DNA of 36,720 bases from an uncultured Clostridia bacterium (GCA_947624365.1 CANQJY010000002.1:1-36720); one strand, 5' to 3'; positions 3,536 through 34,295 are shown, counted from the first letter of the stretch. Program-made: numbers and translations. The notes: generated by a model not told the origin, from the letters alone.

Positions 3536-3611
3536 GGGCCATTAGCTCAGTTGGTAGAGCAGCAGACTCTTAATCTGACGGTCGGAGGTTCGAACCCTCT
3601 ATGGCTCACCA
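3536..3611 (+). tRNA. tRNA-Lys (anticodon CTT), CCA encoded
   Basis: 76-nt cloverleaf: acceptor GGGCCAT/ATGGCTC, D arm GCTC-AGTTGGTA-GAGC, anticodon loop CT-CTT-AA, T arm GGAGG-TTCGAAC-CCTCT, terminal CCA. Confidence 0.95.
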
Positions 3612-3652: not shown

Positions 3653-3733
3653 CAATTAGCCACAAGATTTAATAAAATTAATAATTGAAAAAATAATAAA
3701 ATAAATGATATATTATTAGAATTAGGGAACGAA

Positions 3734-3762
3734 TTGAAATTTAAGCAAAAATATAGTATAAT
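3734..3762 (+). promoter_or_regulatory. Sigma-A-type promoter for the DUF1385-like gene
   Basis: TTGAAA (3734-3739), 17-bp spacer, TATAAT (3757-3762). Confidence 0.5.
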
Positions 3763-3796
3763 AATGGTAATAAATTGCAAAAAAGGAGATAAGCAT

Positions 3797-7510: not shown

Positions 7511-9094
7511 ATGATAACCACAAATGGTGTAACCGTAAGATTTGGAAAAAGAGTATTATTTGAAGATGTTAATATCAAATTTACAAAAGGTAACTGCTAT
7601 GGAATTATAGGAGCAAATGGAGCAGGAAAATCAACATTTTTAAAAGTTTTATCAGGAGAAATAGAACCAAGCAAAGGAGATGTAAGTTTAGAAAAAGGAG
7701 CAAGACTATCTGTTCTAAAACAAGACCACTTTGCATATGAAGAATATACTGTAATGGATACAGTAATTATGGGAAACAAAGAATTATATGATATTATGAA
7801 AGAAAAAGATGCAATATACAGTAAGCCAGACTTTTCAGAAGAAGATGGTATGAAAGCAGCAAAATTAGAAGAAAGATTTGCAGAACTTGATGGTTGGAAT
7901 GCAGAATCAGATGCAGCAATTTTATTAAATGATTTAGGAATTATTCCAGAAGATCATTATAAATATATGAAAGAAATTGAACCACACCAAAAAGTAAAAG
8001 TACTGCTAGCACAAAGTTTATTTGGAAATCCAGATGTTTTATTATTAGACGAACCAACAAATGATCTAGATTTAAAAAGTATAAACTGGTTGCAAGAATT
8101 TTTAATAAATTATGAAAATACAGTAATTGTTGTATCACATGATAGATATTTTTTAAACAAAGTATGTACATATATTGCAGATGTCGACTTTGGAAAAATC
8201 ACTTTATATCCAGGAAATTATGACTTTTGGTATGAATCAAGTCAATTAGCATTAAAACAAGCAAGAGATCAAAATAAGAAAAAAGAAGAAAAAATAAAAG
8301 AATTACAAGACTTTATCGCAAGATTTAGTGCAAATGCATCAAAATCAAAACAAGCAACATCAAGAAAAAAGACACTAGAAAAAATACAATTAGAAGAAAT
8401 AAAACCATCTAATAGAAAATATCCATATATTGATTTTAAACCAGATAGAGAACCAGGGAAAGAAATTTTACAAGTAAAAAATATATCAAAAACAGTAGAT
8501 GGTGTGAAATTGTTAGACAAACTATCATTTACATTTAAGCAAGATAATAAAATTGCAGTATTAGCAGACAATGAAAACGCAAAAACAGTATTATTCCAAA
8601 TTATCGCAGGAGAATTAGAACCAGATGAAGGAGAAATTATTTGGGGAACAACTATTACGCAAAATTATTTCCCAAAAGATAACAACTATTTATTTGAAAC
8701 AAACGAAAATATAACAGAATGGTTACGCAAATACTCAAAAGACCCAGATGAAACATATATAAGAAGTTTCCTAGGTAGAATGCTATTTTCAGGAGATGAA
8801 GCATTAAAAAATGTAGAAGTACTATCAGGTGGAGAAAAGGTAAGATGTGTTTTATCAAAAATGATGTTATCAGGTGCAAATTTCCTTATCTTTGATGAGC
8901 CAACAAACCATTTAGATATGGAAAGCATAACAGCATTAAACAATGGTATGCAAAACTTTAAGGGAAATATGATATTTACATCACATGACCACCAATTAAT
9001 GCAAACAGTTGCAAATAGGATTATAGACATAAAATCAAATGGACAAGTAATTGACAAAGAATTAACATATAATGAATACTTAGGAATTGAATAA
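7511..9094 (+). CDS. ABC-F family ATPase (two ABC domains, no TMD; YbiT/Uup-like translation factor type)
   Basis: Two Walker A motifs (GANGAGKST and a degenerate second one), LSGGEK signatures, LLLDEPTN / LIFDEPTN Walker B motifs, and a charged inter-domain linker. Confidence 0.85.
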   Translation: MITTNGVTVRFGKRVLFEDVNIKFTKGNCYGIIGANGAGKSTFLKVLSGEIEPSKGDVSLEKGARLSVLKQDHFAYEEYTVMDTVIMGNKELYDIMKEKDAIYSKPDFSEEDGMKAAKLEERFAELDGWNAESDAAILLNDLGIIPEDHYKYMKEIEPHQKVKVLLAQSLFGNPDVLLLDEPTNDLDLKSINWLQEFLINYENTVIVVSHDRYFLNKVCTYIADVDFGKITLYPGNYDFWYESSQLALKQARDQNKKKEEKIKELQDFIARFSANASKSKQATSRKKTLEKIQLEEIKPSNRKYPYIDFKPDREPGKEILQVKNISKTVDGVKLLDKLSFTFKQDNKIAVLADNENAKTVLFQIIAGELEPDEGEIIWGTTITQNYFPKDNNYLFETNENITEWLRKYSKDPDETYIRSFLGRMLFSGDEALKNVEVLSGGEKVRCVLSKMMLSGANFLIFDEPTNHLDMESITALNNGMQNFKGNMIFTSHDHQLMQTVANRIIDIKSNGQVIDKELTYNEYLGIE

Positions 9095-11303: not shown

Positions 11304-11345
11304 GGGATGAACTTTTTGAAAATTATATTTTAAAAAGTTCATCCC
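11304..11345. terminator. Bidirectional terminator between tex and the convergent response-regulator gene
   Basis: 14-bp stem gggatgaacttttt / aaaaagttcatccc. Confidence 0.7.
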
Positions 11346-11352
11346 TAATTAA

Positions 11353-12408
11353 TTACTTTTGCATAATTTTTTGAATAGAAGAAAAATCATTTTTAATAAT
11401 ATCTAAAAACAAATCATCAAGTTCTGGATCGAACTGTGTTCCTCGGCAACGCTCAAACTCAGAAATAACTTTTTCCATAGGGAGAGAATCACGGTAAGAA
11501 CGTTTAGAAGTCATTGCGTCAAAACTGTCAGCAATAGATGTAATTCTAGCTAAATATGGAATATCATTACCAGCTAAACGACTAGGGTAACCAGTTCCAT
11601 CATATTTCTCATGATGATGTTCAACCATTGGTAAAATATCCTTAAAAATAGAGGCATTTGACAAAATATGAACACCAATATTAGGGTGTTGCTTAATTTG
11701 AGAATATTCATCATCTGTTAATTTAGAATCTTTTTGTAAAATACTATCAGGTACCCCTATTTTTCCAATATCATGGAAAAGCCCCCCAAGATGTAAAAGT
11801 TTTAAATCATCATCAGAAAGACCTAGTTTTTTTCCAATTAAAACAGAGTACTCAGCAACTCTTTCAGAGTGGCCTCGAGTGTAAATATCTTTTGCCTCAA
11901 CAGTATAACGAAGAGTCTCAATACTTTCTAGATAAGCCTTCTCCAATTTTTCATAAGTATCTTTTAACTCGTTATTAATATTTTTTATTTCGTTCATTTG
12001 TTTAATAGACTTAATACCAGACTCTATTAACAATAACAATTGATCAAATTTATCACTTTTTTCGCAATATCCTTGTATATCCAGTCTTTTAATAGTTTCC
12101 AAAGGAGGTGCTAAATCTTTATGCCCTGTTAAAAGTAAAATATATAAATCTTTATTAAATTTACGAATTTCTTCAACTACCTGGTCACCATGGTAAGGTG
12201 TCATAATGAAATCTAAAATCATTAAATCAAAATGTTCATTTCTTACACGTTCAACGGCTTCCATAGGATCAGTAACACCTGTAAATTGGTATCCAGTTCT
12301 TTTTAAAAATATGGATAAAGAATCAACAATTCCCATTTCATCATCAACAGCAATAATTTTATATGAATTATTCTCGGCGTTTTCCAAATTTTGTAAGCCT
12401 TTTCTCAT
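11353..12408 (-). CDS. Response regulator with REC receiver and HD-GYP (c-di-GMP phosphodiesterase-type) output domain
   Basis: REC: IIAVDDE...DLMILDFIM...LLTGH. HD-GYP: HSERVAEY, HDIGK, HHEKYDGTGYP. No DNA-binding domain. GGGGG RBS. Confidence 0.9.
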   Translation of the reverse strand: MRKGLQNLENAENNSYKIIAVDDEMGIVDSLSIFLKRTGYQFTGVTDPMEAVERVRNEHFDLMILDFIMTPYHGDQVVEEIRKFNKDLYILLLTGHKDLAPPLETIKRLDIQGYCEKSDKFDQLLLLIESGIKSIKQMNEIKNINNELKDTYEKLEKAYLESIETLRYTVEAKDIYTRGHSERVAEYSVLIGKKLGLSDDDLKLLHLGGLFHDIGKIGVPDSILQKDSKLTDDEYSQIKQHPNIGVHILSNASIFKDILPMVEHHHEKYDGTGYPSRLAGNDIPYLARITSIADSFDAMTSKRSYRDSLPMEKVISEFERCRGTQFDPELDDLFLDIIKNDFSSIQKIMQK

Positions 12409-12435
12409 ATGCAGTCCCCCTTTAAAATTTTCTTT

Positions 12436-12464
12436 ATTATATTAGTAAAAAACAATAAATGCAA
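12436..12464 (-). promoter_or_regulatory. Possible internal sigma-A-type promoter for the response-regulator gene
   Basis: On the minus strand: TTGCAT (12464-12459), 17-bp spacer, TATAAT (12441-12436), in the 71-bp HK-RR gap. Confidence 0.4.
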
Positions 12465-12479
12465 GTATTTTGGACAAAT

Positions 12480-14285
12480 TTATTCAATTGGTAATATAAT
12501 ATTAAAAGTAGTACCAGTACCTTTTTTAGTTTCAAAAGTAATATCTCCGCCGAAATGAGCTTTAATAGTTGAATATGACATATATAAACCAAGTCCAGTT
12601 CCGTTTTTTCCTTTTGTTGTAATCATTTCTGTAAATATTTTATCTTTTACTTTATCAGGTAAACCTGGACCATAATCCTTGATAGAAATAGTTAAGTGAT
12701 TACTATCATCTTTATGAACAATTAAATCAATTGTTTGATTAGGCTTACCAGCATATGCCTGTATAGAATTAGAAATCATATTATTAATAACTTGAACTAA
12801 GCTATTAATGTCTCCATGTAATTGAGTGTTTTCAGGAACTTCTAAAGATGTATTTAAATACACAATAGCATTTTTTAATTCATGTCTCATTAAAATATCA
12901 ATACGTTTTACAAGCTCTTCTACATCAAAAGTAACAGTATCTGACTCTGACATAACAACGGCCTGGCCTTTAACAGCAGTAATAACATCAGACATATATT
13001 CTGAATATTCCTTTATTTTTTTAGTCCAAGTCATCATATCCCTAGCGATTTCGTGATGATCTTGAGAATTTACTTCAGGGTCATCAATTGAAGAATCATA
13101 TTCTTTTATCAAATCGGAAATTCCTTCAGTAGCACCAGCAATTGACATTATAGGAGTTTTTAAGTTATGAGCAATTCCACCAATTAATTGTCCAAGAGAA
13201 GCTAAACGTTCAGCTTCCATTAAAGTTTCTTGACTATCTTTTAGTCTTTGCATATCTGTTACATGTTGAGTAATATCTTTAAATAAAACTAAAGATCCAA
13301 TAAAAATTTTTTTATTATATAAAGGGCTAAGCTCTATATTAAAGTGTTTATCAATAGCAGAATCAAAAAACTCAATGCTACATGTTTTACCTGTTTTAAT
13401 AGCAGAATAAAAAGACTGTTTAAAATTCTCTATATTTTTTGTATCATGGAACAAATCAAAAATTTTCTTTTTACGAATAGATTGATTTTGCATTTGAAAA
13501 GTTTTAACAAATGTACCATTGTAATCTATAATAGATTCATCTGTATCAAGTACTAAATAGCTGTCTGACATAACATCCACAATACGCTGTAAAGCAATAG
13601 GGGACACATTAAGCAGACTAAATTTAAAAATTGCAAATCCATATAATAAAACCGTAATAGCAAAACTGATTGGAGTCAAAAATACATTCATACTAATTAT
13701 TTTTGTTGTTCCTAAAACATTAATGGCAATTGGTATTAAAGATCCAATCAACAATAAAATAGATTGAATAGAAAATAAACCAGAAGTCTTAAATGATGTA
13801 GTAAGTAATATAACCATACTTACAATAAACAAAGCATAAGTGTATATAGAATGTATATAAAAATATTGGCCATAAACAGTGTCTGATATTATAGAAGAAT
13901 ATTTTATATAAAATAAATGATGAAGATCATTAGTCCATAATATCAACAAAGTAATAATTGGTACAACAAACAAAAGTAGATAAGATTTCTGAAACTTGAT
14001 TTTTGTATTTTTAAATGTTAATGCTAAGAAGAAAAAAGCAACAGGCAAAAAGCAAGTACCAATATAAATAAAATATTCATAGTAAATAGGGTTTACCCCA
14101 AAAGTTTCAGACATAATACTCTGTAGTAATACCCCAATACTAATTAGTATAATACAACTTATTGTACAAAGAAAAGCTTTATGCAATTGTTTTAAAGGAC
14201 GTTGGCGTAGTACGTAAAGTACAAGTATAATAGACAAAACAATTGATATAATTAATAAAATAAAAGGGATTGTTACAATTTCCAT
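12480..14285 (-). CDS. Sensor histidine kinase: multi-pass (about 7 TM) N-terminal domain, PAS-like segment, HisKA, HATPase_c
   Basis: About 230 aa of hydrophobic helices, then the H-box GGIAHNLKTPI, an N-box NNMISNSIQA, and G-boxes DYGPGL and GTGLGL. The AGGAG RBS overlaps the NRPS stop codon. Confidence 0.9.
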   Translation of the reverse strand: MEIVTIPFILLIISIVLSIILVLYVLRQRPLKQLHKAFLCTISCIILISIGVLLQSIMSETFGVNPIYYEYFIYIGTCFLPVAFFFLALTFKNTKIKFQKSYLLLFVVPIITLLILWTNDLHHLFYIKYSSIISDTVYGQYFYIHSIYTYALFIVSMVILLTTSFKTSGLFSIQSILLLIGSLIPIAINVLGTTKIISMNVFLTPISFAITVLLYGFAIFKFSLLNVSPIALQRIVDVMSDSYLVLDTDESIIDYNGTFVKTFQMQNQSIRKKKIFDLFHDTKNIENFKQSFYSAIKTGKTCSIEFFDSAIDKHFNIELSPLYNKKIFIGSLVLFKDITQHVTDMQRLKDSQETLMEAERLASLGQLIGGIAHNLKTPIMSIAGATEGISDLIKEYDSSIDDPEVNSQDHHEIARDMMTWTKKIKEYSEYMSDVITAVKGQAVVMSESDTVTFDVEELVKRIDILMRHELKNAIVYLNTSLEVPENTQLHGDINSLVQVINNMISNSIQAYAGKPNQTIDLIVHKDDSNHLTISIKDYGPGLPDKVKDKIFTEMITTKGKNGTGLGLYMSYSTIKAHFGGDITFETKKGTGTTFNIILPIE

Positions 14286-14296
14286 AAAAAAACTCC

Positions 14297-17200
14297 TTAT
14301 AAAAATTTCATTCTTTTAAAATATTTTATATATTGTATTATATAATTTTTGTCAATATTTTTCCAGTAAAATCCGATAGATTGTAAAAATTTTTCAGAAA
14401 AAGTACTATCCAATCGAATTCTAGAGGTATATACCAACTGTTTCTGGCTATCCAAATCATGGATAATACCAGACAAAATTTGCTTTTTATCATCATCTTC
14501 TAATATTTCATTAATCAATTTTGTCATTTCTTCATTTGAAACAGGCAATATATTATATCCAAATTCAGTTAAAGTATCAGCAAACAATTGTAATGAAAGT
14601 AGTTTAGTATCATAGATATGTAAAACAGTACAATCACTAGTATAGCCAGTTAAACGAATAATAGCATCAGCACATAAATCAACAGGTGTTACTTCAACTT
14701 CATGTTGTAATGCATAAGCAGGAAATGCTCCTAATTTAACAAAAGATTGAATACGTTTTGCAAAAGCGTTTTCATCAATATTTCTTTGAAATCTACCATC
14801 ACGATAACGATTTGAAATATTACCAATACGCAAAATCATTGCATCTAAACCATCTAAAATAGCTTCTAACACAATACGTTCAGCCTTAAATTTAGTTATA
14901 GTATAAATACCTTTTAAATGTTGACCAACAAATAAATCTTTTTCACTAAAAATAACTTTATCATTTATATTTTCAGAAGTTTCTACAATGGCTTCTTCTT
15001 TTTCACCATTACCAGAAACACTAATTGTAGAAATATGGAAAAGCCTTTTATTAAATTCTTTACACCATGAAACAACATTAGCAGTGCCTAAAATATTTAT
15101 GTTTTCAAACAATTCTTTATTACCATAGTGTTTTACAATTGCACCAGCGTGAATTACAGTTGAAACTTCTTGTTTTAAAAGATTTGTATCTTCTTCAGAA
15201 AGAGATAGATTTTGTTCTGTAATATCACCTTCAATTACATGTATGCGAAAACTATATTGATCATAAAAAGCTTCACCAAAATAATATTGTAAAGTATTTT
15301 TCAATCTTTCATAAGGAATTATATTATCTTTTTTACGTATTAAGCAATAAATATCACCAGTTTTCCTTTTTAAAAATGAACCAATCAAATGAGCCCCAAC
15401 ATAGCCAGTACCACCAATTAAAAATACATTTCCAGTATCTACTTTTTTAATAGAATTCAAATATTCTTCAGAATTCTTTGAAAGTAATTCATCAAATTTT
15501 TGATAATTATAATTTTCAATATCACCTTTTTGTAAACGGTGTCTAGTTTTAGCAGACAATTGGTGAATAGTAGGAAAATTGAAAATATCAGCATATTCAA
15601 AATCAAAACCTTCACGTAAAGCATCAATTTGCATATTAATTGCCAAAATAGAATCTCCACCAATATCGAAGAAATTATCATAAATAGATATATCATCTAA
15701 ATGTAAAATACGTTTCCAAATATTCCATAATTTTTTCTCATTTGGTGTTTTTATTTCATCAATAATTTTTGCAACTTTACGCTCATTTATATCAGGAATT
15801 GGTAATGCTTTTCTATCAATCTTACGATTAATTGTATAAGGCATTTCTTCCAAACGGAAAATATAAGTAGGAACCATATATGCTGGTAAATTTTTTTTAA
15901 GAATATCTTTTACGTCACCTTCTGTAATATATGAATTTTCATCACAAACATAGTATCCACACAAAAATTCACGATCTTCAATACATACTTTATGAGCAAC
16001 ACTAGATATAACACCAGGAATTTGTTCCATAACACCTTCAATTTCACCAAGCTCTATACGCAATCCACGTAATTTAATTTGATTATCTATACGCCCTAAA
16101 CATTGAACTTTTCCATCAAAAGTCCATTTACCAATATCGCCAGATTTATACATTTTGCCAGTTCCAAAAGGATTATCAATAAATTTATCATGAGTCATAT
16201 CAGGTTTACCAAGATAACCAAGGCCAACTTGAATACCAGAAATATAAATTTCACCAACAACACCAATTGGAACAGGGCGAAGATATTTATCTAATATATG
16301 AATTTGCGTATTCAAAATAGGAGGGCCGATTGTAATACGATCTTCACCATTTAAATTTTGAACATTACAAAGTACAGTAATTTCACTAGGACCATAAATA
16401 TTGTAAATAGTAACATTATCAGATAATTCACGTAAATCTTTTACAAATTTTTCAGGTAAAGGTTCTCCACCAAAAACCATATGTTTGATTTGGGACAAAG
16501 CAGAAGGTGATACACGATTATCATAATTTATTTTCATTAAGCTAGGAGTTACAGTCATAACATCTCCACCATATTGTTTGATTAATTTATCTAGTAGGAT
16601 AGGATTTCTATGTTCTTCGTTATTTGCCATTAAAATACGTAACCCATGCCCTAAAGAAACTAAAATTTCATAAACAAAAATATCAAAAGGTGTAGAAGTA
16701 ACAGAAACTAAGCAATGTTCATTTCCATCTTTTAAATATTCTAAAACTTTACCCATTGCAATAACCATATTTGCAAGTCCAATCTGATGTAACATAACTC
16801 CTTTAGGCTTACCCGTAGAGCCAGAAGTATATATAACATAAGATAAATCCATAGAATTAACAGTTACATTTGGATTATTGAAATGCTTTAAATATATAGG
16901 GCTATCTAAATCAATTTCTATACAATGTTCTATATTTTTAACAAGTTTTTTTAAAGACTTTTGTACCAAAACATATTTTGCCTTACAATCTTTTAAATAA
17001 TATTTTGTACGTTCTATGGGATATGTAGGGTCAACATTCAAAAAGGCAGCTCCAGCTTTTAAAATTCCAAGCATACATACAATAGTTTCAAAAGAACGAT
17101 TAGTCATAATACACACAATATCATTTGGCTTAATTCCTTGTGAAATCAAATAATGAGCAAGCGAATTTGCCTTTTTATTTAATTCTTTATATGTTAAATT

Positions 17201-20200
17201 TTTTCCATCACAAATAATAGCAATATCTTCAGGATGTAGCATTACTTGATTCTCAAATATTTCAACAAATGAATTGTATTCAATATCACCAGCTGTATTA
17301 TTAAAAGATTGCAACAAATTATTTTCTTCTTCTGTTAAGGCAGGTATTTTATGCAAAGGAAGATCCATAAAAGAAGATAAATGTTGTAAAATATATAAAT
17401 AATGTTTATATAAACTGTCAATAGTTTCCTCTGCAAATAATGCAGTTTGATATTCAAATGAAATCTCTAAAGTAGAAGGATTAATTTCTACTGTTAAAGG
17501 AAATTTTGCTGTATGTGTATGAGCACCATATAATTCAACAGATTTGTTATTAAGAGAAATTTGTTCTACTTCTTCATTTTGATATGTAAATACCACATCA
17601 AAGACAGAAGAATTTGCAGGAACATTAATATCTTTTACAAAAGTATTATAAGGATAAGGCTGATGAGATAGACCATCTAAAACCGTTTCTTTTACTTGTT
17701 GTAACAAATCTAAAAAACTACAATCACTATTAATATCTATTGCCAAAACAACATTATTAACAAACATACCAATCATATTATTTAATTCTTTATGATAGCG
17801 AGACTCAATTGGAGAACCAATAATTAGAGTTTCTTGCCCAGTATATAAATATAGTAATAAATATAAAGCACTTAAAAATACCATATATTCAGAAACATGG
17901 TGATTAGAAGCTATATCAGAAATTGCATTAAATAAATCAGTATCAAATTTAAAAGTTAAGCGTTCTCCATCATATGATTTTTGATTTGTTACTGGATAAT
18001 CATAAGGTAAGTTAATAACAGGAATTGATAAATCTTTAAATTTATTTTTCCAATATTCTTGATAATCTAAAAATGCCTCAGAAGAAAACATATCATTTTC
18101 CCACATAGTATAATCTGTATAAGAGTATCTACTTTTATCTAATTCTTGACCTTGATATAATTTGCAAAAATCAGATAGCAAAATATATAAAGAAGTACCA
18201 TCTAATATAATATGATGAGAATCCAGTAATATTAAAGTAGAAGAATTAATATAATGTACTTCTACACGTAACAATGGAGCAAAGTCTAAATCAAATATTT
18301 TAGGAAAATTATCAACCAACTCAGAAATATATTCAGGAGTTGAAATACCATCATCATAATAAGGAATGTCTAAGTTTACATGTTTTAAAATAAACTGTCT
18401 TACTTCTCCATTTTCTATTTTAAAATAAGTACGGAAAATAGGATGTCTTTCTACTAATTCTGAAAAAGCTTCACGGATTTTTTGAATATCTAATAAATCA
18501 TTAATTAAAATACCACCACTTACATGATAAACAAGAGAATCACCAGCCATTTTTGTTGCATAATAAATTCTTTCTTGTGCTGAAGAAAGTGGATAAGAAG
18601 GCATAGGCGTTGCTTTCTTAAGTTTTACTATACAATCTTTCTTGTCCTTTCCACTTAAAAATATTGCCAAAGATTGAATAGTAGGATATTGGAATAAGTC
18701 AGTAATAGAAATAGCCTTTCCTGAAAATCCTTCTATCTCTAAGCAGAAACGAATTCCTTGCAAAGAGTCCATACCTAAAGTAAAGAAATTTTCATCAATA
18801 GAAATTTGTTTTAATCCTAATAAATGGCATAAAGAGTCATGCAATTTTGCTTGCATAGAATTTGTGGGACCAACAAAATCCCTACGGAAATCTGCAAAAT
18901 CAGGCAAAGTAGATATATCAATTTTACCATTTTTTGTAACAGGAAATTTATCTAATAATATAAAATGTGAAGGTATCATATAGTAAGGTAAAAGTTTTGA
19001 AAGTTCCAATTTTAAATTTTCAATAGACAAAGAATTATCTTCTAATATTACATAAGCACAAAGACAATCTATCTTCTCAATAGATTTCACAAGAATAAGT
19101 GCATTTTTAACACCTGAAATATTTTTTAATCTATTTGTAATTTCTTGTAATTCAATACGATGGCCATGTAATTTAATTTGAGAATCATTTCTACCCATAA
19201 AGCAAAGATACCCCTTTTTATCCCAACGAACAATATCACCGGTTCTATAAAAAAGGGAAGAGCCAAATCCAGGTAATAATATATAACTTTTTTCATTCAT
19301 TGAAACATTATGCAAATAACCTTTCGAAACATTTTCTCCACTAATACATAATTCTCCAGGGTATCCAATAGGCATAATATTTCCAAAGTGATTTATAACT
19401 ACAATTATATTATTTTTTAAAGGATATCCAATAGGAACAATCCCATCAGAATCATCTTCTTTAGTATATTTATAAAATGTAGAGCAAATAGTAGCCTCAG
19501 TAGGGCCATAGCCATTTACAATTTCTATGTTTTCATTTAAATTAAAATATTTACGCAAATCTGCTTTTTTTATTGCTTCTACACCAACTAACATTTTATT
19601 TAATGCAATTGTTGAACAATGTGAATATACATAGTTATATACATCATTTAAAATATTTGGAGGAATATATAAAAAGGTAATTTGTTCTTCTTCCAAAAGT
19701 TCGCATAAAAGAGGAATATCTGTTAATGTGTTTTGAGGATATAAAACTAAAGTAGCTCCAAAACATAATGGAGTGAATAGTTCACACACACTCACATCAA
19801 ATGAAATATTTGTACTAGATAAACAAACATCTTCATTTGAAAATCCATTTTCAAAACAATTAGAAAAAGTATATAAAAAATTAACTAAATTACGATGTGT
19901 AAGCATAACTCCTTTTGGCCTTCCAGTAGAACCAGAAGTATAAATTACATAGCATAAACGATTACTAGCAATAGACACATGTAAAGAGTCAGAAGAATAA
20001 TCATCTAAAGAAATATCAGTTGCACGTGAAACAACCAAATTTTTAATATCATTTAACTTGAATAATTGATCTGTTAAAAATAGTTTAGCATGACTATCAG
20101 TTAAAATATATCGAATTCTATCTTCAGGATAATCAAAAGACATTGGTAAATAAGCAGCACCCAATTTTAAAATTGCTAAAATACTAATAACAAAGAAATC

Positions 20201-21739
20201 ATTTTTATGCATACATACTCCAACAATATCATTTGACTTTACACCTTGATTAGAAAGGTAATGTGCTAATTGATTTGCTTTTTTATCTAATTGACTATAA
20301 GTAAGTCGTGTATCTTGATAAACACATGCTATACTATCTGGATGAAGTCTTACCTGTTTTTGAAAAAGGTCTATAATAGTGCAATCCAAAGGACAATCTA
20401 AAAAGCCAGATTGAAGATTTTGAGTCAATTGTAATCTTTCTTTATCTGTTATAAATTGCACATTTTGAAGTAATATATCAGGCATAGATACAACCTGTTC
20501 AATCATAGAACATAAACGATTGTGCCAAACCATTACATCAGCTTGAGTATATTTAGAATTAACGAAATCATAATCTACTTCCAAACTACCAATATCATTT
20601 AAATCATACAAGTGAATACTAATATCATTCATACAATTACCAGTAAAAGCCCAATTTAACTCACAATCCCCATTATCATGAGACAAAGTTTTTGTAATTT
20701 GATAAGAAACAGCAATATTATATAAATGAGAAATAGAATTATCTTTATTACCCAAATCTTCCATCAATTGAGAATAAGGATATTTCTGATGGCGCAAAAT
20801 AGAGGTAAAAGCAGAGCGATTTGCTTCTAAAAATTCTGAAAAGCGCATATTTTTAAAAACATGAGTACGAAAAGGAACAGTAGTTACAAACATACCAGTA
20901 GAACGTTTTTCCTTAAAATTTGCGCGATTTAATATTGGTGTACCAATAAGTACATCATCAACATTGCCAGCATTTGCTAAAAATAGTGAAATTACTGACA
21001 TAAAAAATACATAATTAGAAACACGAAAGTCTGAACATAATTTATTGATACGTTCCATAATTTGTTTGTCCAAACGAAATGTAAGCCTAGAACCATCAGG
21101 AGAATCCACAAAATTATCTGATAAAGAAGGAATACTAGTAGGAGTAGGTGGATCCTGTAGATAAGACATCCAAAAAGTTTTATCTTTCTGAAAATTTTTG
21201 CTATCCAAATATTTTTGTTCTGCTAATATATGTTCAGTATATGAAACAGTATCAGAAACATAATCTTTATTAGATAATAGACAATGATAAATTTTTACAA
21301 TTTCCTGAATAGTGATACCCATAGACCACGAATCAGAAATAATATGATGTAAATTTAAAACAACTGCTACATATCCATTAGGAAATACAGCAAGTTTAAA
21401 AGTAAAAAGACGAGAATCAAGCAATGAAAACGTCTCTTTTACAAATTCTTCTTCAAAAGACATGAGATATTCAGTAGAAGGTAGATTTACAACAGAAATA
21501 TCATCTACTCCATATATATCATCAGCAGCAATATATTGGAAAGGTTCACTATCATTTACAGTTAGGCGAATACGAAAACTATCATTTTCTTGTACAAGAC
21601 GTACAATAGCCTGTTTTAACAAAGGAATATCAACTTTTTCTTTTATTAAACCAGAACCGCAAATATTACAAGCATTTGAATCTTTTAAAAATTGCTGTGA
21701 AAACCAAATATTTAATTGAGGATTTGTTAATTTAAACAT
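14297..21739 (-). CDS. Dimodular nonribosomal peptide synthetase, C-A-T-C-A-T-R (terminal thioester reductase)
   Basis: Motifs in order, numbered from the ORF-track Met at 21751. C1: HHIISDS (135-141). A1: YTSGSTGRPKG (604-614), NGYGPTE, YRTGD, NGKID. T1: LGMDS (Ser996). C2: HHIILDG (1179-1185). A2: YTSGSTGKPKG (1641-1651), NIYGPSE, YKSGD. T2: IGGDS (Ser2034). R: GGTGYVG (2113-2119) and YTITK (2283-2287). A GGAG 6 nt upstream favours Met5 (21739) as the start. Confidence 0.95.
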   Translation of the reverse strand: MFKLTNPQLNIWFSQQFLKDSNACNICGSGLIKEKVDIPLLKQAIVRLVQENDSFRIRLTVNDSEPFQYIAADDIYGVDDISVVNLPSTEYLMSFEEEFVKETFSLLDSRLFTFKLAVFPNGYVAVVLNLHHIISDSWSMGITIQEIVKIYHCLLSNKDYVSDTVSYTEHILAEQKYLDSKNFQKDKTFWMSYLQDPPTPTSIPSLSDNFVDSPDGSRLTFRLDKQIMERINKLCSDFRVSNYVFFMSVISLFLANAGNVDDVLIGTPILNRANFKEKRSTGMFVTTVPFRTHVFKNMRFSEFLEANRSAFTSILRHQKYPYSQLMEDLGNKDNSISHLYNIAVSYQITKTLSHDNGDCELNWAFTGNCMNDISIHLYDLNDIGSLEVDYDFVNSKYTQADVMVWHNRLCSMIEQVVSMPDILLQNVQFITDKERLQLTQNLQSGFLDCPLDCTIIDLFQKQVRLHPDSIACVYQDTRLTYSQLDKKANQLAHYLSNQGVKSNDIVGVCMHKNDFFVISILAILKLGAAYLPMSFDYPEDRIRYILTDSHAKLFLTDQLFKLNDIKNLVVSRATDISLDDYSSDSLHVSIASNRLCYVIYTSGSTGRPKGVMLTHRNLVNFLYTFSNCFENGFSNEDVCLSSTNISFDVSVCELFTPLCFGATLVLYPQNTLTDIPLLCELLEEEQITFLYIPPNILNDVYNYVYSHCSTIALNKMLVGVEAIKKADLRKYFNLNENIEIVNGYGPTEATICSTFYKYTKEDDSDGIVPIGYPLKNNIIVVINHFGNIMPIGYPGELCISGENVSKGYLHNVSMNEKSYILLPGFGSSLFYRTGDIVRWDKKGYLCFMGRNDSQIKLHGHRIELQEITNRLKNISGVKNALILVKSIEKIDCLCAYVILEDNSLSIENLKLELSKLLPYYMIPSHFILLDKFPVTKNGKIDISTLPDFADFRRDFVGPTNSMQAKLHDSLCHLLGLKQISIDENFFTLGMDSLQGIRFCLEIEGFSGKAISITDLFQYPTIQSLAIFLSGKDKKDCIVKLKKATPMPSYPLSSAQERIYYATKMAGDSLVYHVSGGILINDLLDIQKIREAFSELVERHPIFRTYFKIENGEVRQFILKHVNLDIPYYDDGISTPEYISELVDNFPKIFDLDFAPLLRVEVHYINSSTLILLDSHHIILDGTSLYILLSDFCKLYQGQELDKSRYSYTDYTMWENDMFSSEAFLDYQEYWKNKFKDLSIPVINLPYDYPVTNQKSYDGERLTFKFDTDLFNAISDIASNHHVSEYMVFLSALYLLLYLYTGQETLIIGSPIESRYHKELNNMIGMFVNNVVLAIDINSDCSFLDLLQQVKETVLDGLSHQPYPYNTFVKDINVPANSSVFDVVFTYQNEEVEQISLNNKSVELYGAHTHTAKFPLTVEINPSTLEISFEYQTALFAEETIDSLYKHYLYILQHLSSFMDLPLHKIPALTEEENNLLQSFNNTAGDIEYNSFVEIFENQVMLHPEDIAIICDGKNLTYKELNKKANSLAHYLISQGIKPNDIVCIMTNRSFETIVCMLGILKAGAAFLNVDPTYPIERTKYYLKDCKAKYVLVQKSLKKLVKNIEHCIEIDLDSPIYLKHFNNPNVTVNSMDLSYVIYTSGSTGKPKGVMLHQIGLANMVIAMGKVLEYLKDGNEHCLVSVTSTPFDIFVYEILVSLGHGLRILMANNEEHRNPILLDKLIKQYGGDVMTVTPSLMKINYDNRVSPSALSQIKHMVFGGEPLPEKFVKDLRELSDNVTIYNIYGPSEITVLCNVQNLNGEDRITIGPPILNTQIHILDKYLRPVPIGVVGEIYISGIQVGLGYLGKPDMTHDKFIDNPFGTGKMYKSGDIGKWTFDGKVQCLGRIDNQIKLRGLRIELGEIEGVMEQIPGVISSVAHKVCIEDREFLCGYYVCDENSYITEGDVKDILKKNLPAYMVPTYIFRLEEMPYTINRKIDRKALPIPDINERKVAKIIDEIKTPNEKKLWNIWKRILHLDDISIYDNFFDIGGDSILAINMQIDALREGFDFEYADIFNFPTIHQLSAKTRHRLQKGDIENYNYQKFDELLSKNSEEYLNSIKKVDTGNVFLIGGTGYVGAHLIGSFLKRKTGDIYCLIRKKDNIIPYERLKNTLQYYFGEAFYDQYSFRIHVIEGDITEQNLSLSEEDTNLLKQEVSTVIHAGAIVKHYGNKELFENINILGTANVVSWCKEFNKRLFHISTISVSGNGEKEEAIVETSENINDKVIFSEKDLFVGQHLKGIYTITKFKAERIVLEAILDGLDAMILRIGNISNRYRDGRFQRNIDENAFAKRIQSFVKLGAFPAYALQHEVEVTPVDLCADAIIRLTGYTSDCTVLHIYDTKLLSLQLFADTLTEFGYNILPVSNEEMTKLINEILEDDDKKQILSGIIHDLDSQKQLVYTSRIRLDSTFSEKFLQSIGFYWKNIDKNYIIQYIKYFKRMKFL

Positions 21740-21771
21740 CTTTTTCTCCATTTACACATCTTTGTCAATTT

Positions 21772-21845
21772 TGTCCATTTTGGGACGGTCCTTTTTTGGA
21801 CATTTTGAAACAAATGTCCAAAAAAGGACCGTCCCAAAATGGACA
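21772..21845. repeat. Perfect palindrome (31-bp core arms, extendable to 34 bp) in the NRPS leader, possibly a MITE-like element
   Basis: GTCCATTTTGGGACGGTCCTTTTTTGGACAT (21773-21803) is the exact reverse complement of 21814-21844. Each arm is two tandem GTCC-N6-GGAC units. It is flanked by the direct repeat ACACATCTTT (21754-21763 and 21848-21857). Confidence 0.9.
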
Positions 21846-21866: not shown

Positions 21867-21895
21867 ATTATATAAATAACACAAAAAAAATGCAA
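21867..21895 (-). promoter_or_regulatory. Sigma-A-type promoter for the NRPS-HK-RR operon
   Basis: On the minus strand: TTGCAT (21895-21890), 17-bp spacer, TATAAT (21872-21867). The predicted TSS near 21860 puts the palindrome inside the 5' leader. Confidence 0.5.
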
Positions 21896-21966: not shown

Positions 21967-21995
21967 TTGAAAAACACTACATTTTATGTTAATAT
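21967..21995 (+). promoter_or_regulatory. Divergent sigma-A-type promoter for the Rpn-like gene
   Basis: TTGAAA (21967-21972), 17-bp spacer, extended -10 TGtTAATAT (21987-21995). Confidence 0.45.
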
Positions 21996-22027
21996 ATGCA
22001 TACCATATTGACCAAAGGAGAAGTACA

Positions 22028-22678
22028 ATGAAAATATTTACATACGAAGAATATATAGAATATAAAAAGCAAGTAAAAATATATGCAGATAAACATTTTA
22101 AACTTAGCATAGAAAAACAAATTTTTTTAGAAATGTATAATGGAAAAGAAGAATTAAAGACCGGTGAAATATACGAGTATTGGAAAAATTCAAAAAGAAA
22201 AATAAATAATATACAATTACAAAAAAAATTAGAAAATAAAACAAAAATAATTCCTATTATCAATAATGCCGTAAAAGATAATTTACACCTTACACCAGAG
22301 ATGCTACAAATGTATAAATCTAGCTATATAAATACAATGTTTCAAAATGGCCAAATAAGTATTATATATCGAATTATTGGAACTAATATATTTTTTTTAA
22401 TTACGCATCAAGAGAAAATTGATTATACTATGCCAGCAAGAATTCTTAGTTATATTATAGGAGTTATAGATAAAGCATTAAAAAATGTTGAAATTAGAAG
22501 ACATATGAAAATCCCAACAGTTATACCTATTATAGTATATACGGGAAACGAACAATGGAATATGGAACAATTTATAAAAAATAGTCAAAAAAAGCTATAC
22601 CCATTTCAAAAAATAGGTTTAGGAGAATATAATATTTTAAAAATGTTTAAAAATAAAAATAATTGGGAACACTTGTAA
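22028..22678 (+). CDS. Rpn/YhgA-like PD-(D/E)XK family protein (putative transposase/recombination-promoting nuclease family), truncated and probably catalytically degenerate
   Basis: YKSSYIN...ISIIYRIIGTNIFFLITHQEKIDYTMPARILSY...IPTVIPIIVYTGNEQW matches the clostridial Rpn core pattern (xDIVYK...LIEHQSxIDYSMPxRxxxY...PxVIPIVLYTGxxxW). AAAGGAG RBS before the ATG at 22028. Confidence 0.6.
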   Translation: MKIFTYEEYIEYKKQVKIYADKHFKLSIEKQIFLEMYNGKEELKTGEIYEYWKNSKRKINNIQLQKKLENKTKIIPIINNAVKDNLHLTPEMLQMYKSSYINTMFQNGQISIIYRIIGTNIFFLITHQEKIDYTMPARILSYIIGVIDKALKNVEIRRHMKIPTVIPIIVYTGNEQWNMEQFIKNSQKKLYPFQKIGLGEYNILKMFKNKNNWEHL

Positions 22679-22690
22679 CGAGGTGTTTTC

Positions 22691-23827
22691 ATGAAAAGTA
22701 AAAGAGGAAAAAGGACAGATCCAAAAAAAAGAATATTAATAATAGCAATTATTTTAATATTATTATGGATAAGCGCATTCTATATTTATACTACATATAA
22801 AAATATAGAAATTGAACCTTCAACATATGAAACATCAAGAGTATTATCCACACCAAACGAACAAACTGTGGAAAACACAGAAGAAAAAAGCAAAACTATT
22901 TCAGATATGATAGAAGAAACAACTAAAAATGTTGTAGGAATATCAAAATTAAGAAACACAGGGAATTCAATTTTAACTTCAAGTAATGAAGCAGAGTTAG
23001 GTTTAGGAACAGGAGTAATTGTAACTGATAATGGATATATACTAAGTAATGAGCATGTAACTGGAAGCAAATATAGTAAATGTTATATAACTTTAGAAAA
23101 CGGACAAAATTATGAAGGAATAGTTGCATGGAGTGATACAGATTTAGATTTATCTCTAACAAAAATTGCAGCTAAAAATTTATCATATGCAAAATTAGGT
23201 GACTCTAGCCAAATAAGGGTAGGAGAAACGGTATATGCAATTGGAAACCCAATTGGATTTGAATTTAGAAGAACTGTAACATCAGGAATTATTAGTGCCA
23301 AAAATAGAAGCATTAAAATAGAAGAAGAAAACAATGAAGCATACATGTCAGACCTTATTCAAACAGATGCAACAATTAACCCTGGAAACAGTGGAGGACC
23401 ACTTATCACGCCAAATGGTGAAGTGATTGGAATTAACACAGTAAAAATAACAACAGCAGAAGGAATAGGGTTTGCTGTTCCAATCAATACTGTAAAAAGT
23501 ATTATTGAAAATTATCAAAAACAAGGAAGTTATGAACAAGCAACAATCGGAATTTATGCATATGACAAAGAAGTAATACCGTATTTAAATAGTAATATTT
23601 CTTTTGAACAGGGAATTTATATAGCACAAATTACGCCAAATGGACCTGCAGACAAAACTGGATTGCAAGAAAAAGATATAATATTATCTATTGATGAAAA
23701 ACAATTAAATACGATGAACGATCTAAGAGAATACATTTATACAAAAAAACCAGGAGACCAAGTAACATTAAAAATAGCTAGAGGAAAAATTAATAAAGAA
23801 ATTAGCATAACACTTGGGAAGAAATAA
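22691..23827 (+). CDS. htrA: HtrA/DegP-family serine protease (trypsin-like domain + PDZ), membrane anchored
   Basis: N-terminal TM. Catalytic His (SNEHV), Asp (TDLDLSL) and Ser (GNSGGPL). C-terminal PDZ (GIYIAQITPNGPADKTGLQEKDIILSID). Confidence 0.9.
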   Translation: MKSKRGKRTDPKKRILIIAIILILLWISAFYIYTTYKNIEIEPSTYETSRVLSTPNEQTVENTEEKSKTISDMIEETTKNVVGISKLRNTGNSILTSSNEAELGLGTGVIVTDNGYILSNEHVTGSKYSKCYITLENGQNYEGIVAWSDTDLDLSLTKIAAKNLSYAKLGDSSQIRVGETVYAIGNPIGFEFRRTVTSGIISAKNRSIKIEEENNEAYMSDLIQTDATINPGNSGGPLITPNGEVIGINTVKITTAEGIGFAVPINTVKSIIENYQKQGSYEQATIGIYAYDKEVIPYLNSNISFEQGIYIAQITPNGPADKTGLQEKDIILSIDEKQLNTMNDLREYIYTKKPGDQVTLKIARGKINKEISITLGKK

Positions 23828-29063: not shown

Positions 29064-29097
29064 TGTCCATTTTGGGACGGTACTTTTTTGGACATTT
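29064..29097 (+). repeat. Solo copy of the 31-bp palindrome arm seen at 21773-21803 (33/34 identity)
   Basis: tGTCCATTTTGGGACGGTaCTTTTTTGGACATtt starts 1 nt after the murF TAA. There is a single C>A difference at 29082. Confidence 0.9.
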
Positions 29098-29253: not shown

Positions 29254-30135
29254 ATGGTATATAAAGATTATTATAAAATATTAGATTTAGAAACTAGTAG
29301 AGTTTCAATAGAAGAAATAAAAACAGCATATAGAGCTGCAGCAAAAAAATATCATCCAGATGTAAATGTTGGAAATAATTTAGCAGAAGAAAAAATAAAA
29401 GATATTAATGAAGCATATAGAATATTATCTATACCAGCTTCTAAGAGAAAATATGATAGAAAATGGAATGCACATTATGCAAGCACTCACCAAAAAAATT
29501 TGAGGAATAAAGAATCTATATTTGAAATGTTTTTAGGAAATATAGAAAATGATGCAACAACTAAAAAAGGCCAGAATCCAATATGTGGAGAAGATATAGA
29601 AACGGAAATACAAGTTCCAATTGAAGAAGCATATTTTGGCATAGAAAAGAAAATATCACTAAAAACAGTAGAAGGAAAAAACAAAACATTTTCTATTACT
29701 ATACCAAAAGGAATTCAAAATGGTGCTAGAATTAGATTAATAGGGCAAGGAAAACAAGGAAAAAACGGTGGAAAAAACGGAAATTTATATATAAAAATTC
29801 AAATTCAAGATAACAAAAAGTTTAAATTAAATGGAAGTGATTTATATACAAACTTACTATTGACACCGTGGGAAGCAAGTTTAGGAACAAGAGTAACAAT
29901 ACCAACTATTGAAGAAGAAACAAAAATATATATTCCACAAGGAATACAAAGTGGAGAAAAAATACGTATACCTAACAAAGGATACTACAAAGAGAAAGGC
30001 GAAAAGGGTGATTTAATTGCAGAAATAAAAATTGTAGTTCCACGAGAAATAACAGAAGCGGAAAAAGCAATATATGAGCAATTAAAAGAAGTTTCAAAAT
30101 TCAATCCGAGAGAAAATATTGAGAAAAATGCTTAA
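29254..30135 (+). CDS. J-domain co-chaperone, CbpA-like (J domain + DnaJ C-terminal domains, no zinc-finger region)
   Basis: DYYKILDL...KKYHPDVN (HPD). The C-terminal beta-domains carry GEDIETEI, GQGKQGKNGGKNGNLYIKI and GDLIAEIKIVVP. No CxxCxGxG repeats. Confidence 0.85.
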   Translation: MVYKDYYKILDLETSRVSIEEIKTAYRAAAKKYHPDVNVGNNLAEEKIKDINEAYRILSIPASKRKYDRKWNAHYASTHQKNLRNKESIFEMFLGNIENDATTKKGQNPICGEDIETEIQVPIEEAYFGIEKKISLKTVEGKNKTFSITIPKGIQNGARIRLIGQGKQGKNGGKNGNLYIKIQIQDNKKFKLNGSDLYTNLLLTPWEASLGTRVTIPTIEEETKIYIPQGIQSGEKIRIPNKGYYKEKGEKGDLIAEIKIVVPREITEAEKAIYEQLKEVSKFNPRENIEKNA

Positions 30136-30161
30136 AAACAACAATTTACATAAATTTTATA

Positions 30162-30190
30162 TTGACAAATAGCTTGTTTTCCTGTATAAT
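30162..30190 (+). promoter_or_regulatory. Strong sigma-A-type promoter for the orphan-ORF/T4CP cluster
   Basis: TTGACA (30162-30167), 17-bp spacer, extended -10 TGTATAAT (30183-30190). Confidence 0.55.
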
Positions 30191-30249
30191 AAAAAGTGGG
30201 CATGCAAAAGACAAGCTATGTATAAATCATAGGAGTGAGGTGTCAAAAA

Positions 30250-30774
30250 ATGGAGATGTGGCAAGGAAAGCACTTTAGTATCACAGATCCTAAAGATGTA
30301 AAAACAGTAATATATCAAGTAAACAAAACAGAAAAAGAATTTTTAGAAAATGCACCAAAATATACAATACAAAGATTAGACTTTACTCAAGAACTTAGAG
30401 GTGAAAATACTAGAAAAACTTTTTATGTTGATAACCCATCAGAAGATGAAGATCATTTAGTAATATTATCTTTTGGAAAAGATAGAGTAGTAGTAAATAT
30501 GGCATTATTAGAAGATGACAAAATATCTATTTCAAAAAAACCAATGCCATTAAAATTTAACAGTATCTATAATGAGAAAGAAACAGAGTATAAAGATTTT
30601 CAATATACACCAAATTTAAAGAGACCAATATGCATTATTGACCCAGAGACTACAGAAGAAGTAGAGCCAATGCTTTATTTTGATGAAAACACAAATGAAG
30701 TAAAAGGCAAATGTAAATTAAAACCATATAAATCTTATTTTGCCTTTGAAATCAGGGACAAAAAGGATGTTTAA
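30250..30774 (+). CDS. Hypothetical protein (about 174 aa), no family recognised
   Basis: Long ORF with coding-like composition. AGGAGTGAGG RBS about 9 nt before the ATG at 30250. Tightly followed by the next ORF. Confidence 0.6.
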   Translation: MEMWQGKHFSITDPKDVKTVIYQVNKTEKEFLENAPKYTIQRLDFTQELRGENTRKTFYVDNPSEDEDHLVILSFGKDRVVVNMALLEDDKISISKKPMPLKFNSIYNEKETEYKDFQYTPNLKRPICIIDPETTEEVEPMLYFDENTNEVKGKCKLKPYKSYFAFEIRDKKDV

Positions 30775-30788
30775 GGAGGAAAACAAAA

Positions 30789-31094
30789 ATGGGAAATCCA
30801 GGAGTAGCAAGCACAAATAATGCTTTTGAAGTTAATTTTATAATGACAACAGGACTAGAACTAGGTAAAAAAATACAAACAGTAGGTGAAGGATCAAAAG
30901 ATTCTAATATAGGACCAAAAATTGATACAGAAGTTTCTAAACATGAATGGGGATATGATCCTGAAACAAAAAAAGGAATTAGAGTTAGAAATTTAAATGG
31001 AAGAAAAGTACAAGAAGAAGGAAATGCTAAAATAATGAAACAAGAATATGATATTCGTATTCAAAAAGAAAAAAGCAAAGAAAATGAAAGATAG
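30789..31094 (+). CDS. Hypothetical protein (101 aa), no family recognised
   Basis: Strong AAGGAGG RBS 8 nt before the ATG. Charged, Lys/Glu-rich C-terminus. Confidence 0.55.
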   Translation: MGNPGVASTNNAFEVNFIMTTGLELGKKIQTVGEGSKDSNIGPKIDTEVSKHEWGYDPETKKGIRVRNLNGRKVQEEGNAKIMKQEYDIRIQKEKSKENER

Positions 31095-31122
31095 AATAAA
31101 CCAAAGATAGTAGGTGAATTGT

Positions 31123-34282: not shown

Positions 34283-34295
34283 AAGGGAGATAATT

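Follow-up and report, generated by a model that had tools for sequence, protein, structure and literature searches.

Allelic cassettes join a peptide-aldehyde-type NRPS of gut Clostridia to a seven-transmembrane sensor kinase and suggest a signalling circuit

Here we describe a stretch of 36,720 nucleotides (hereafter the window) from an uncultured Clostridia bacterium (GCA_947624365.1, CANQJY010000002.1:1-36720), in which the gene for a dimodular non-ribosomal peptide synthetase (NRPS) is followed directly by genes for a histidine kinase with a seven-transmembrane (7TM) sensor and a response regulator of REC-HD-GYP type. The NRPS has two condensation (C), adenylation (A) and carrier (T) modules and a terminal thioester reductase (R), in the order C-A-T-C-A-T-R. 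Across more than 150 related gut-bacterial loci its linkage to the kinase is two-way and near-obligate, and its first adenylation domain (A1) forms allelic cassettes with the substrate-binding (C-terminal) subdomain of R and the membrane sensor of the kinase. This suggests a role for the product in bacterial signalling, whether in addition to protease inhibition or in its place. We propose that an NRPS of the dipeptide-aldehyde kind here serves as signal synthase in a circuit with a cognate receptor, a cyclic di-GMP (c-di-GMP) output and allelic specificity types, a proposal for and against which we find the balance about even.

Results and discussion

Linkage of the NRPS and the kinase

The three genes are predicted to form an operon with the NRPS first:

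14297-21751, minus strand: NRPS gene, C-A-T-C-A-T-R; longest open reading frame (ORF) 2484 amino acids (aa), or 2480 aa from the probable ATG at 21739
12480-14285, minus strand: histidine kinase, 601 aa, with HisKA_7TM sensor, PAS domain and HisKA/HATPase core
11353-12408, minus strand: response regulator, 351 aa, REC plus HD-GYP (Response_reg and HD_5/HD)

Scanning one genome per species, we collected 79 genome loci related to this NRPS. In 78 of them the next gene after the NRPS encodes a kinase homologue, the 79th ending 5 nt past the NRPS, and a REC-HD-GYP regulator was found in 70. Where the ORFs are intact (73 loci), the median distance from NRPS to kinase is 11 nt. The linkage also holds in the reverse direction: when metagenome loci were retrieved with an alignment of the kinase (the best 80 of 486 relatives), an NRPS R domain stood immediately upstream of the kinase in all 77 that had upstream DNA. 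The same gene order recurs in two very abundant clusters (P0112 and P0037), and six more distant loci keep the NRPS-kinase pair amid different neighbours (CobW, RelA/SpoT-like, DUF2752, ArsC and NUDIX).

Co-variation of A1 and the kinase sensor

The A1 specificity code varies across relatives, and the divergence of the kinase sensor follows it. For this analysis we took 56 non-redundant loci, all of the common A2 class, and defined close relatives by a kinase-core distance below 0.15. Distances between close relatives were as follows for pairs with the same A1 code (26 pairs) and with different codes (33 pairs):

A1: 0.17 with the same code, 0.53 with different codes
Kinase transmembrane helices 4-7: 0.12 and 0.38
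R domain: 0.13 and 0.32
PAS domain: 0.18 and 0.23
Kinase core: 0.10 and 0.10
Regulator: 0.07 and 0.08

With each locus used only once (disjoint close pairs), the sensor distance was 0.135 for the same A1 code versus 0.424 for different codes (p = 0.0002), at equal kinase-core distance (0.106 versus 0.090). Partial Mantel tests (r about 0.4-0.47) were set aside as unreliable with related sequences, and are superseded by the matched-pair, disjoint-pair and DNA-profile analyses.

Individual pairs show where the change is located:

L096/L105, Gly-type and Thr-type A1: kinase core identical, PAS 0.8% divergent, sensor 37% divergent
L029/L105, Pro and Thr A1: kinase core 0.4%, PAS 3.4% and sensor 45% divergent
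L020/L026, nucleotide identity: C1 about 100%; A1 52-56%
L020/L026, C2 to the N-terminal subdomain of R: 98-100% identical
L020/L026, C-terminal subdomain of R plus kinase 7TM region: 61-73%; remainder 90-96%

The DNA profiles of L020/L026 and L043/L068 have the same two islands of low identity (about 50-75%), one being A1 and the other the C-terminal subdomain of R together with the kinase 7TM region; in L043/L068 the DNA between them is about 83-95% identical. In L096 versus L105 the divergent block is continuous from A1 to about residue 205 of the kinase, with flanks 96-100% identical. Within the kinase gene the divergent block has a sharp boundary, at the junction of sensor and PAS domain, and the kinase core is about 91-100% identical in all cassette pairs. 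In the window the co-varying subdomain of R corresponds to aa ~2316-2484 of the NRPS.

The sensor also tracks A1 class among the 56 loci as a whole. The nearest neighbour by sensor sequence had the same A1 class in 50 of 56 cases, compared with 45 for the C-terminal subdomain of R, 38 each for C2 and A2, 33 each for C1 and PAS, and only 26 with the kinase core. Three alleles, of Pro, Gly and Thr type, occur within a single species-level group (L029, L096, L105). These data show allelic cassettes that pair A1 with the substrate-binding subdomain of R and the membrane sensor of the kinase.

An intact reductive-release NRPS

The NRPS is read as a single minus-strand ORF (14297-21751), far longer than expected by chance in DNA of ~28% G+C. 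Its domains are:

20432-21739, minus strand (aa ~5-440): C1, condensation, motif HHIISDS at aa 135-141; presumed N-acylating
18902-20365, minus strand (aa 463-950): A1, adenylation, code DVCYLGGICK; the variable determinant of the family
18659-18847, minus strand (aa 969-1031): T1, carrier, GMDSL, Ser996
17312-18595, minus strand (aa 1053-1480): C2, condensation, HHIILDG at aa 1179-1185; LCL-like
15797-17254, minus strand (aa ~1500-1985): A2, adenylation, code DIYTVGIVLK, near-invariant in the family
15542-15733, minus strand (aa ~2007-2070): T2, carrier, GGDSI, Ser2034
14300-15427, minus strand (aa 2109-2484): R, thioester reductase, GGTGYVG at aa 2113-2119 and YTITK at aa 2283-2287

Each domain call rests on Pfam and motifs. 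Pfam finds two Condensation, two AMP-binding (with AMP-binding_C) and two PP-binding domains and a terminal NAD_binding_4/Epimerase match (aa 2109-2364; NAD_binding_4 at 2112-2364), and the motif scan finds the catalytic motifs complete in all seven domains: HHxxxD in both C domains, A3, A4, A5, A7, A8 and A10 in both A domains, and GxxGxxG with S/T-Y-K in R. The original prediction, made from the DNA without database searches, had this architecture right. Its C-A-T-C-A-T-R order in one ORF stands; no thioesterase (TE) domain was found in the protein by Pfam, as it had said; the motifs that it quoted (HHIISDS, GGTGYVG and YxxxK, here YTITK) were all located; and its domain spans agree with ours to a few tens of bases. 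The terminal thioester reductase is likewise confirmed by profile search and by solved-structure relatives: R is closest to the carrier-reductase (PCP-R) didomain of Mru_0351 (6VTJ, E = 1.3e-54), followed by the aldehyde-forming AusA reductase (4F6C, E = 1.1e-39) and MxaA (8e-24). Two details need amending. The bounds 14297-21751 hold for the longest ORF; the true start is probably 21739 rather than 21751, because a GGAG ribosome-binding site lies 7 nt ahead of this second ATG and the database copy of the protein (P0001, a gene-caller product) has 2480 aa. The N-terminal C domain does carry HHIISDS, as predicted; it had also been called an extra domain, and here the prediction fails, because C-A-T-C-A-T-R is the published architecture of the family and such a domain is its norm.

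The two condensation domains differ in how readily they can be typed. C2 scores 239.6 bits to TycC6, an LCL domain, versus 50-60 bits to known starter C domains, and is clearly assigned to the LCL type. C1 keeps the motif xHxxxD[S/A] in all 65 dimodular relatives, and its second His and its Asp are invariant, an argument for a domain in use.

Specificity codes rest on alignment to a GrsA-PheA fragment and on standard motif anchors. Both pockets, DVCYLGGICK in A1 and DIYTVGIVLK in A2, are hydrophobic, and both domains keep Asp235 (D235) and Lys517 (K517) and should therefore take alpha-amino acids. Module 2 is far more conserved across relatives than module 1: the A2 code DIYTVGI[V/I]L occurs in 46 of 64 dimodular relatives, within a domain that has long invariant stretches. 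A conserved C-terminal (P1) residue in the family's products is implied, since this code is nearly invariant. DIYTVGI[V/I]LK matched none of the canonical codes, of which the Phe-type codes are the nearest to it. The A1 codes of relatives fall into several recognisable classes and several without assignment, the former including Gly (DILQLGMIW), Pro (DVQFIAHVA), Thr (DFWNIGMVH) and Val (DAFWLGGTF) codes.

Relatives and family chemistry

In all, 2149 proteins match the NRPS at E <= 1e-50. The closest non-self protein among 5.8 billion is 65% identical, and the next relatives are hundreds of proteins of 2472-2493 aa at 48-58% identity. Three-module relatives of about 3510-3570 aa are also among the matches; several of these (L063, L069, L079; also P0029, P0030, P0040 and others) are followed by the same kinase, and their middle module has a Gly-type code (DILQLGMIW). 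Such versions would give tripeptide aldehydes in the same system. All 79 of the closest genome loci come from gut or rumen metagenome-assembled genomes (MAGs) or metagenome-derived assemblies, nearly all labelled Clostridia or Clostridium, with sources that include human cohorts (Hadza, Nepal, Brazil), rabbit, goat and roe deer; Clostridium sp. CAG:452, CAG:389 and CAG:780 are among them. Two loci with the same Clostridia-type synteny carry the record labels Bacteroidaceae (L019) and Erysipelotrichaceae (L067), which probably reflect mis-binning or mislabelling of MAG contigs.

The gut NRPSs described by the Fischbach group share the C-A-T-C-A-T-R order and give 5-unsubstituted pyrazinones by way of a dipeptide aldehyde, the aldehyde being the protease-inhibiting species (PMC10979478). 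The family comprises 47 clusters and is highly prevalent in stool (PMC12282076). A Clostridium NRPS cluster (BGC0001686) made N-octanoyl-Met-Phe-H in Escherichia coli, and ruminopeptin is an N-acylated Leu-Glu aldehyde (PMC8518294); the N-acyl tail possibly stabilises the aldehyde (PMC8210680). Products of the family are active against cathepsins (PMC8518294, PMC12282076). Whether an R domain yields aldehyde or alcohol is not yet readable from sequence (PMC8024701). The architecture, the reductase of the short-chain dehydrogenase/reductase type, the lack of a TE, the AusA-like R and this published chemistry together support the dipeptide-aldehyde interpretation of the original prediction. The NRPS is, on its sequence, an intact reductive-release dimodular enzyme of the gut-Clostridia dipeptide-aldehyde type. 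Taken alone it is best described as one more member of an established kind; what seems new is its place, with the conserved, co-diversifying kinase and the HD-GYP regulator, in a signal-receptor module.

The kinase and the response regulator

The kinase comprises a 7TM sensor (aa 1-230, 13596-14285; PF16927, HisKA_7TM, 1.4e-40 over aa 10-229), a PAS domain (aa 231-345) and then HisKA/HATPase_c, with H, N, G1 and G2 boxes intact. Its GGAG ribosome-binding site directly follows the NRPS stop codon, the gap between the genes being 11 nt. The response regulator has intact HD and HHExxDGxGYP motifs (HDIGK and HHEKYDGTGYP), no DNA-binding domain was found in it, and it scores 197.5 bits against the NCBIfam NosR-family regulator model, under the cut-off of 400. 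We predict that it is a c-di-GMP phosphodiesterase with the domain order of RpfG. Past its stop codon, ahead of the convergent Tex gene, lies the probable end of the operon:

11304-11345, no strand: hairpin with a 14-bp stem (GGGATGAACTTTTT / AAAAAGTTCATCCC) and a 14-nt loop, read from the sequence and unreported by the scan because of the loop length

A cysteine in the kinase 7TM motif YIGTCFLP (Cys78) is invariant in 74 of 74 NRPS-linked kinases. We considered Cys78 as a possible aldehyde-reactive residue and dropped the idea, as it is also present in some distant or hybrid HisKA_7TM kinases and absent in others, and hence is not diagnostic.

The original prediction had spoken of a single protein plus its regulators as the whole pathway. 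A 7TM sensor kinase and a REC-HD-GYP protein without a DNA-binding domain do not fit the sense of transcription factors or regulators of the gene, and the two proteins seem, as the co-variation suggests, to behave as the product's cognate sensor instead. Pfam analysis of every remaining ORF of 80 aa or more agrees with it that the window holds no phosphopantetheinyl transferase (PPTase), MbtH, type II TE, transporter or tailoring gene. No transporter with membrane domains was found among these ORFs, and the ABC protein at 7511-9094 is of ABC-F type, without a membrane domain. The window is not quite the whole pathway, because the PPTase gene must lie in another part of the genome.

A proposed circuit and its alternatives

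We infer the structure of the product, its N-acylation, its recognition by the kinase and the c-di-GMP output, and propose the following circuit. A1 would load a hydrophobic residue that differs between alleles (here through DVCYLGGICK) and A2 a residue that is almost invariant in the family (DIYTVGIVLK); C2 would join the two, and C1 probably N-acylates residue 1. R would then release the thioester with NAD(P)H as an aldehyde, which would cyclise to a (dihydro)pyrazinone if its N-terminus were free. The lipophilic product, or a pyrazinone derived from it, would be recognised by the 7TM domain of the co-transcribed kinase, which would control the HD-GYP phosphodiesterase by phosphotransfer, with degradation of c-di-GMP as the outcome. 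Residue 1 would set specificity, A1, the C-terminal subdomain of R and the kinase sensor forming interchangeable allelic types. A precedent exists in Klebsiella oxytoca, whose autoinducers include pyrazinones that arise from a peptide aldehyde (PMC11480411). A wider proposal, which we hold only tentatively and rate somewhat short of an even chance, is that dipeptide aldehydes or pyrazinones are primarily pheromones, and that a prevalent uncultured low-G+C lineage of gut Clostridia practises NRPS-based quorum sensing and kin discrimination with pherotypes, each strain having one of several exchangeable cassettes in which a residue-1 specificity is matched to a 7TM sensor.

Several observations weigh against the circuit. 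Tex (55 loci), HtrA (57) and ABC-F (39) are also syntenic among the 79 loci, and part of the NRPS-kinase linkage therefore reflects common descent. No HD-GYP regulator lies within 6-10 kb of the six distant NRPS-kinase pairs. The pairs compared are related to one another and not fully independent, and in some of them A1 to sensor is a single block, so that hitch-hiking could explain the divergence of the sensor. On the chemical side, comparison of the A1 and A2 codes with canonical codes assigned a substrate to neither; C1 is divergent in comparison with solved structures, at 97.7 bits to TycC6 (LCL) versus 62.8, 58.7 and 50.6 bits to the starter domains of SrfAA, RzmA and CDA; and an R domain may give an alcohol instead of an aldehyde (PMC8024701).

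The product might instead be purely a secreted protease inhibitor, directed at host or competitor proteases, with a kinase that senses some other cue, for instance from the host or the envelope, and merely shares the transcript; the co-diversification of A1 and sensor would then reflect a recombination hot spot or independent diversifying selection. Family products do inhibit cathepsins (PMC8518294, PMC12282076), an HtrA-type serine protease lies divergently upstream in 57 of 79 loci, adjacency alone is weak evidence where the whole locus is syntenic, and in two pairs, L096/L105 and L029/L105, the variable region is one unbroken stretch. The linkage nevertheless persists in unrelated contexts (78/79 genome loci, and 77/77 among the best 80 of 486 metagenome relatives), A1 and sensor change while the roughly 4 kb between them stays 98-100% (L020/L026) or about 83-95% identical (L043/L068), and the variable block ends sharply at the sensor/PAS junction. 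Moreover, the sensor predicts A1 class across species (50/56) better than do the C1, C2, A2 and R domains of the NRPS itself. We consider a purely inhibitory product unlikely. The inhibitory and signalling readings are not mutually exclusive, and a role in protease inhibition may coexist with signalling.

Recognition of the product by the kinase could also serve feedback, export or self-protection rather than communication between cells, for example if the 7TM domain sensed product accumulating in the membrane, so that physiology could be adjusted, or docked the R domain there. The substrate-binding C-terminal subdomain of R and the kinase sensor do form one contiguous variable island, and no exporter is encoded nearby. 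The present data fit extracellular sensing equally, and the HisKA_7TM sensors are a broad family, with 6080 representatives at E <= 1e-3, that is not known to have a transport function; this explanation seems to us quite improbable. A further alternative concerns the chemistry: the product may not be an N-acyl aldehyde, either because C1 is unused and a pyrazinone forms, or because R performs a four-electron reduction to a dipeptide alcohol. In its favour, family members with the C-A-T-C-A-T-R order reportedly specify pyrazinones unsubstituted at position 5 (PMC10979478), C1 does not clearly belong to the lipo-initiation starter type, and the extent of reduction is unpredictable from sequence (PMC8024701). 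The catalytic His and Asp of C1 are conserved in 65/65 relatives, however, N-acylated products are documented (BGC0001686 and ruminopeptin, PMC8518294), and among characterised reductases whose product is known the nearest is the R of AusA, which forms an aldehyde. We regard such a product as on the unlikely side, though a serious contender.

If NRPS, kinase and regulator do form a signalling circuit, the hard-wired cognate sensor, the c-di-GMP output and the natural alleles would give a testable handle on the use that producers make of these molecules, and a pheromone reading would point to what gut dipeptide-aldehyde NRPSs as a wider family do natively. Were the NRPS only another member of that family, the finding would amount to routine genome mining. 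Few biosynthetic genes of the human microbiome are as widespread as those for gut dipeptide-aldehyde NRPSs; Guo and colleagues (Cell, 2017) reportedly found them in about 88% of Human Microbiome Project stool samples. The only activity assigned to their products so far is inhibition of host cathepsins, with compounds obtained in heterologous hosts.

The NRPS leader and neighbouring genes

Two features were noted upstream of the NRPS gene:

21867-21895, minus strand: promoter-like TTGCAT-N17-TATAAT, read from the sequence and under the scan threshold; the -10 element is perfect and the -35 weak
21772-21845, no strand: a 31-nt element present twice, the copies forming a perfect inverted repeat within the 5' leader of the NRPS

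The consensus promoter scan gave nothing above shuffled expectation. The same TTGCAT-N17-TATAAT recurs at 12421-12449 (minus strand), in the 71-nt gap before the response regulator, where it may be a chance occurrence in AT-rich DNA or that gene's own promoter. The 31-nt element, TGTCCATTTTGGGACGGTCCTTTTTTGGACA, occurs three times in the window, at 21772-21802 (plus), 21815-21845 (minus) and 29064-29094 (plus), the third copy having one mismatch and lying directly after the stop codon of a Mur-ligase gene. The 166-nt leader that contains the hairpin folds at -77 kcal/mol (z = -13). The element is absent from all 79 related loci and may be a genome-specific terminator-like or REP/MITE-like repeat. 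No riboswitch was found in the leader in Rfam at the gathering threshold, and a riboswitch or c-di-GMP leader was rejected, as the palindrome matched nothing but generic hairpin (miRNA) models when the scan was made permissive.

Divergently upstream of the NRPS lie a YhgA-like (Transposase_31) gene (21986-22678, plus strand) and then an HtrA-type serine protease with Trypsin_2 and PDZ domains (22691-23827, plus strand). Among related loci a YhgA-like homologue occupies that position only in L005 (46% identity), and the gene looks recently inserted, because HtrA abuts the NRPS promoter region in most relatives. HtrA is divergently adjacent to the NRPS in 57 of 79 loci and keeps this place in some whose downstream context has changed (L045, L074); the adjacency may mean no more than synteny, or HtrA may be targeted by, or partnered with, a peptide-aldehyde product. 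About 7.5 kb upstream of the NRPS, a plus-strand block (29254-33109) holds a DnaJ-like gene, two ORFs of 179 and 163 aa without a Pfam hit, and a TraG/VirD4 coupling protein. In five relatives (L020, L026, L034, L037, L066) the same block, at 47-74% protein identity, separates the kinase gene from that of the HD-GYP regulator; apparently the block is mobile, a small unit with this neighbourhood as its target. A tRNA-Lys(CTT) gene (3536-3611, plus strand) and an SbcD/SbcC-like pair (Metallophos and AAA_23/AAA_27; 33197-36167, plus strand) at the window's end are ordinary housekeeping genes.

Comparison with known systems

The nearest known relatives are the gut-Clostridia NRPSs (Guo et al., Cell 2017; BGC0001686), which are alike in their C-A-T-C-A-T-R order, reductive release, gut-Clostridia relatives and N-acyl or free dipeptide aldehyde chemistry (PMC10979478, PMC8518294). 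Our comparison with them is one of published descriptions, and this NRPS is at most 65% identical to any other protein. In the searchable literature we found no report of such NRPSs paired with a 7TM kinase and HD-GYP regulator or forming allelic cassettes, which is weak evidence of novelty. The ruminopeptin (rup) NRPS of Ruminococcus bromii is also a widespread gut enzyme with a predicted N-acylated dipeptide aldehyde product (PMC8518294, PMC12327764); it differs in its host lineage and in its Leu-Glu product, compared with two hydrophobic pockets here. The closest solved PCP-R didomain, that of Mru_0351 from Methanobrevibacter ruminantium (6VTJ/6VTZ), comes likewise from a gut organism, but belongs to a much larger archaeal NRPS with R at residues ~3701-4187 and an unknown product (PMC8024701). 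The partner of AusA is the PPTase AusB, not a kinase (PMC12153313). AusA (PznA), which makes the aureusimines of Staphylococcus aureus, is dimodular with a homologous terminal R and gives the best NCBIfam match of this NRPS; it is A-T-C-A-T-R, without an N-terminal C domain, and the NRPS scores 1759.8 bits against the AusA equivalog NF047350, under the cut-off of 2500 and hence outside that family.

Two signalling systems offer analogies in layout. In the Xanthomonas Rpf system for diffusible signal factor (DSF), the synthase RpfF, the sensor kinase RpfC and the REC-HD-GYP protein RpfG are clustered in one locus. The proposed circuit would follow the same logic of synthase, membrane sensor kinase and REC-HD-GYP output, although the Rpf signal is a fatty acid from a crotonase-family enzyme and its kinase a hybrid of another family, in Proteobacteria; no homology of synthase or sensor is implied. 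In the staphylococcal agr groups a hypervariable block covers the signal determinant and the membrane sensor of AgrC, and the kinase domain is conserved. That system uses a ribosomal thiolactone peptide and a DNA-binding output regulator, with neither an NRPS nor c-di-GMP, but the pattern of variation is analogous: in agr (AgrD/AgrB and AgrC), as here, the determinant of the synthase and the sensor vary together while kinase core and flanks are conserved.

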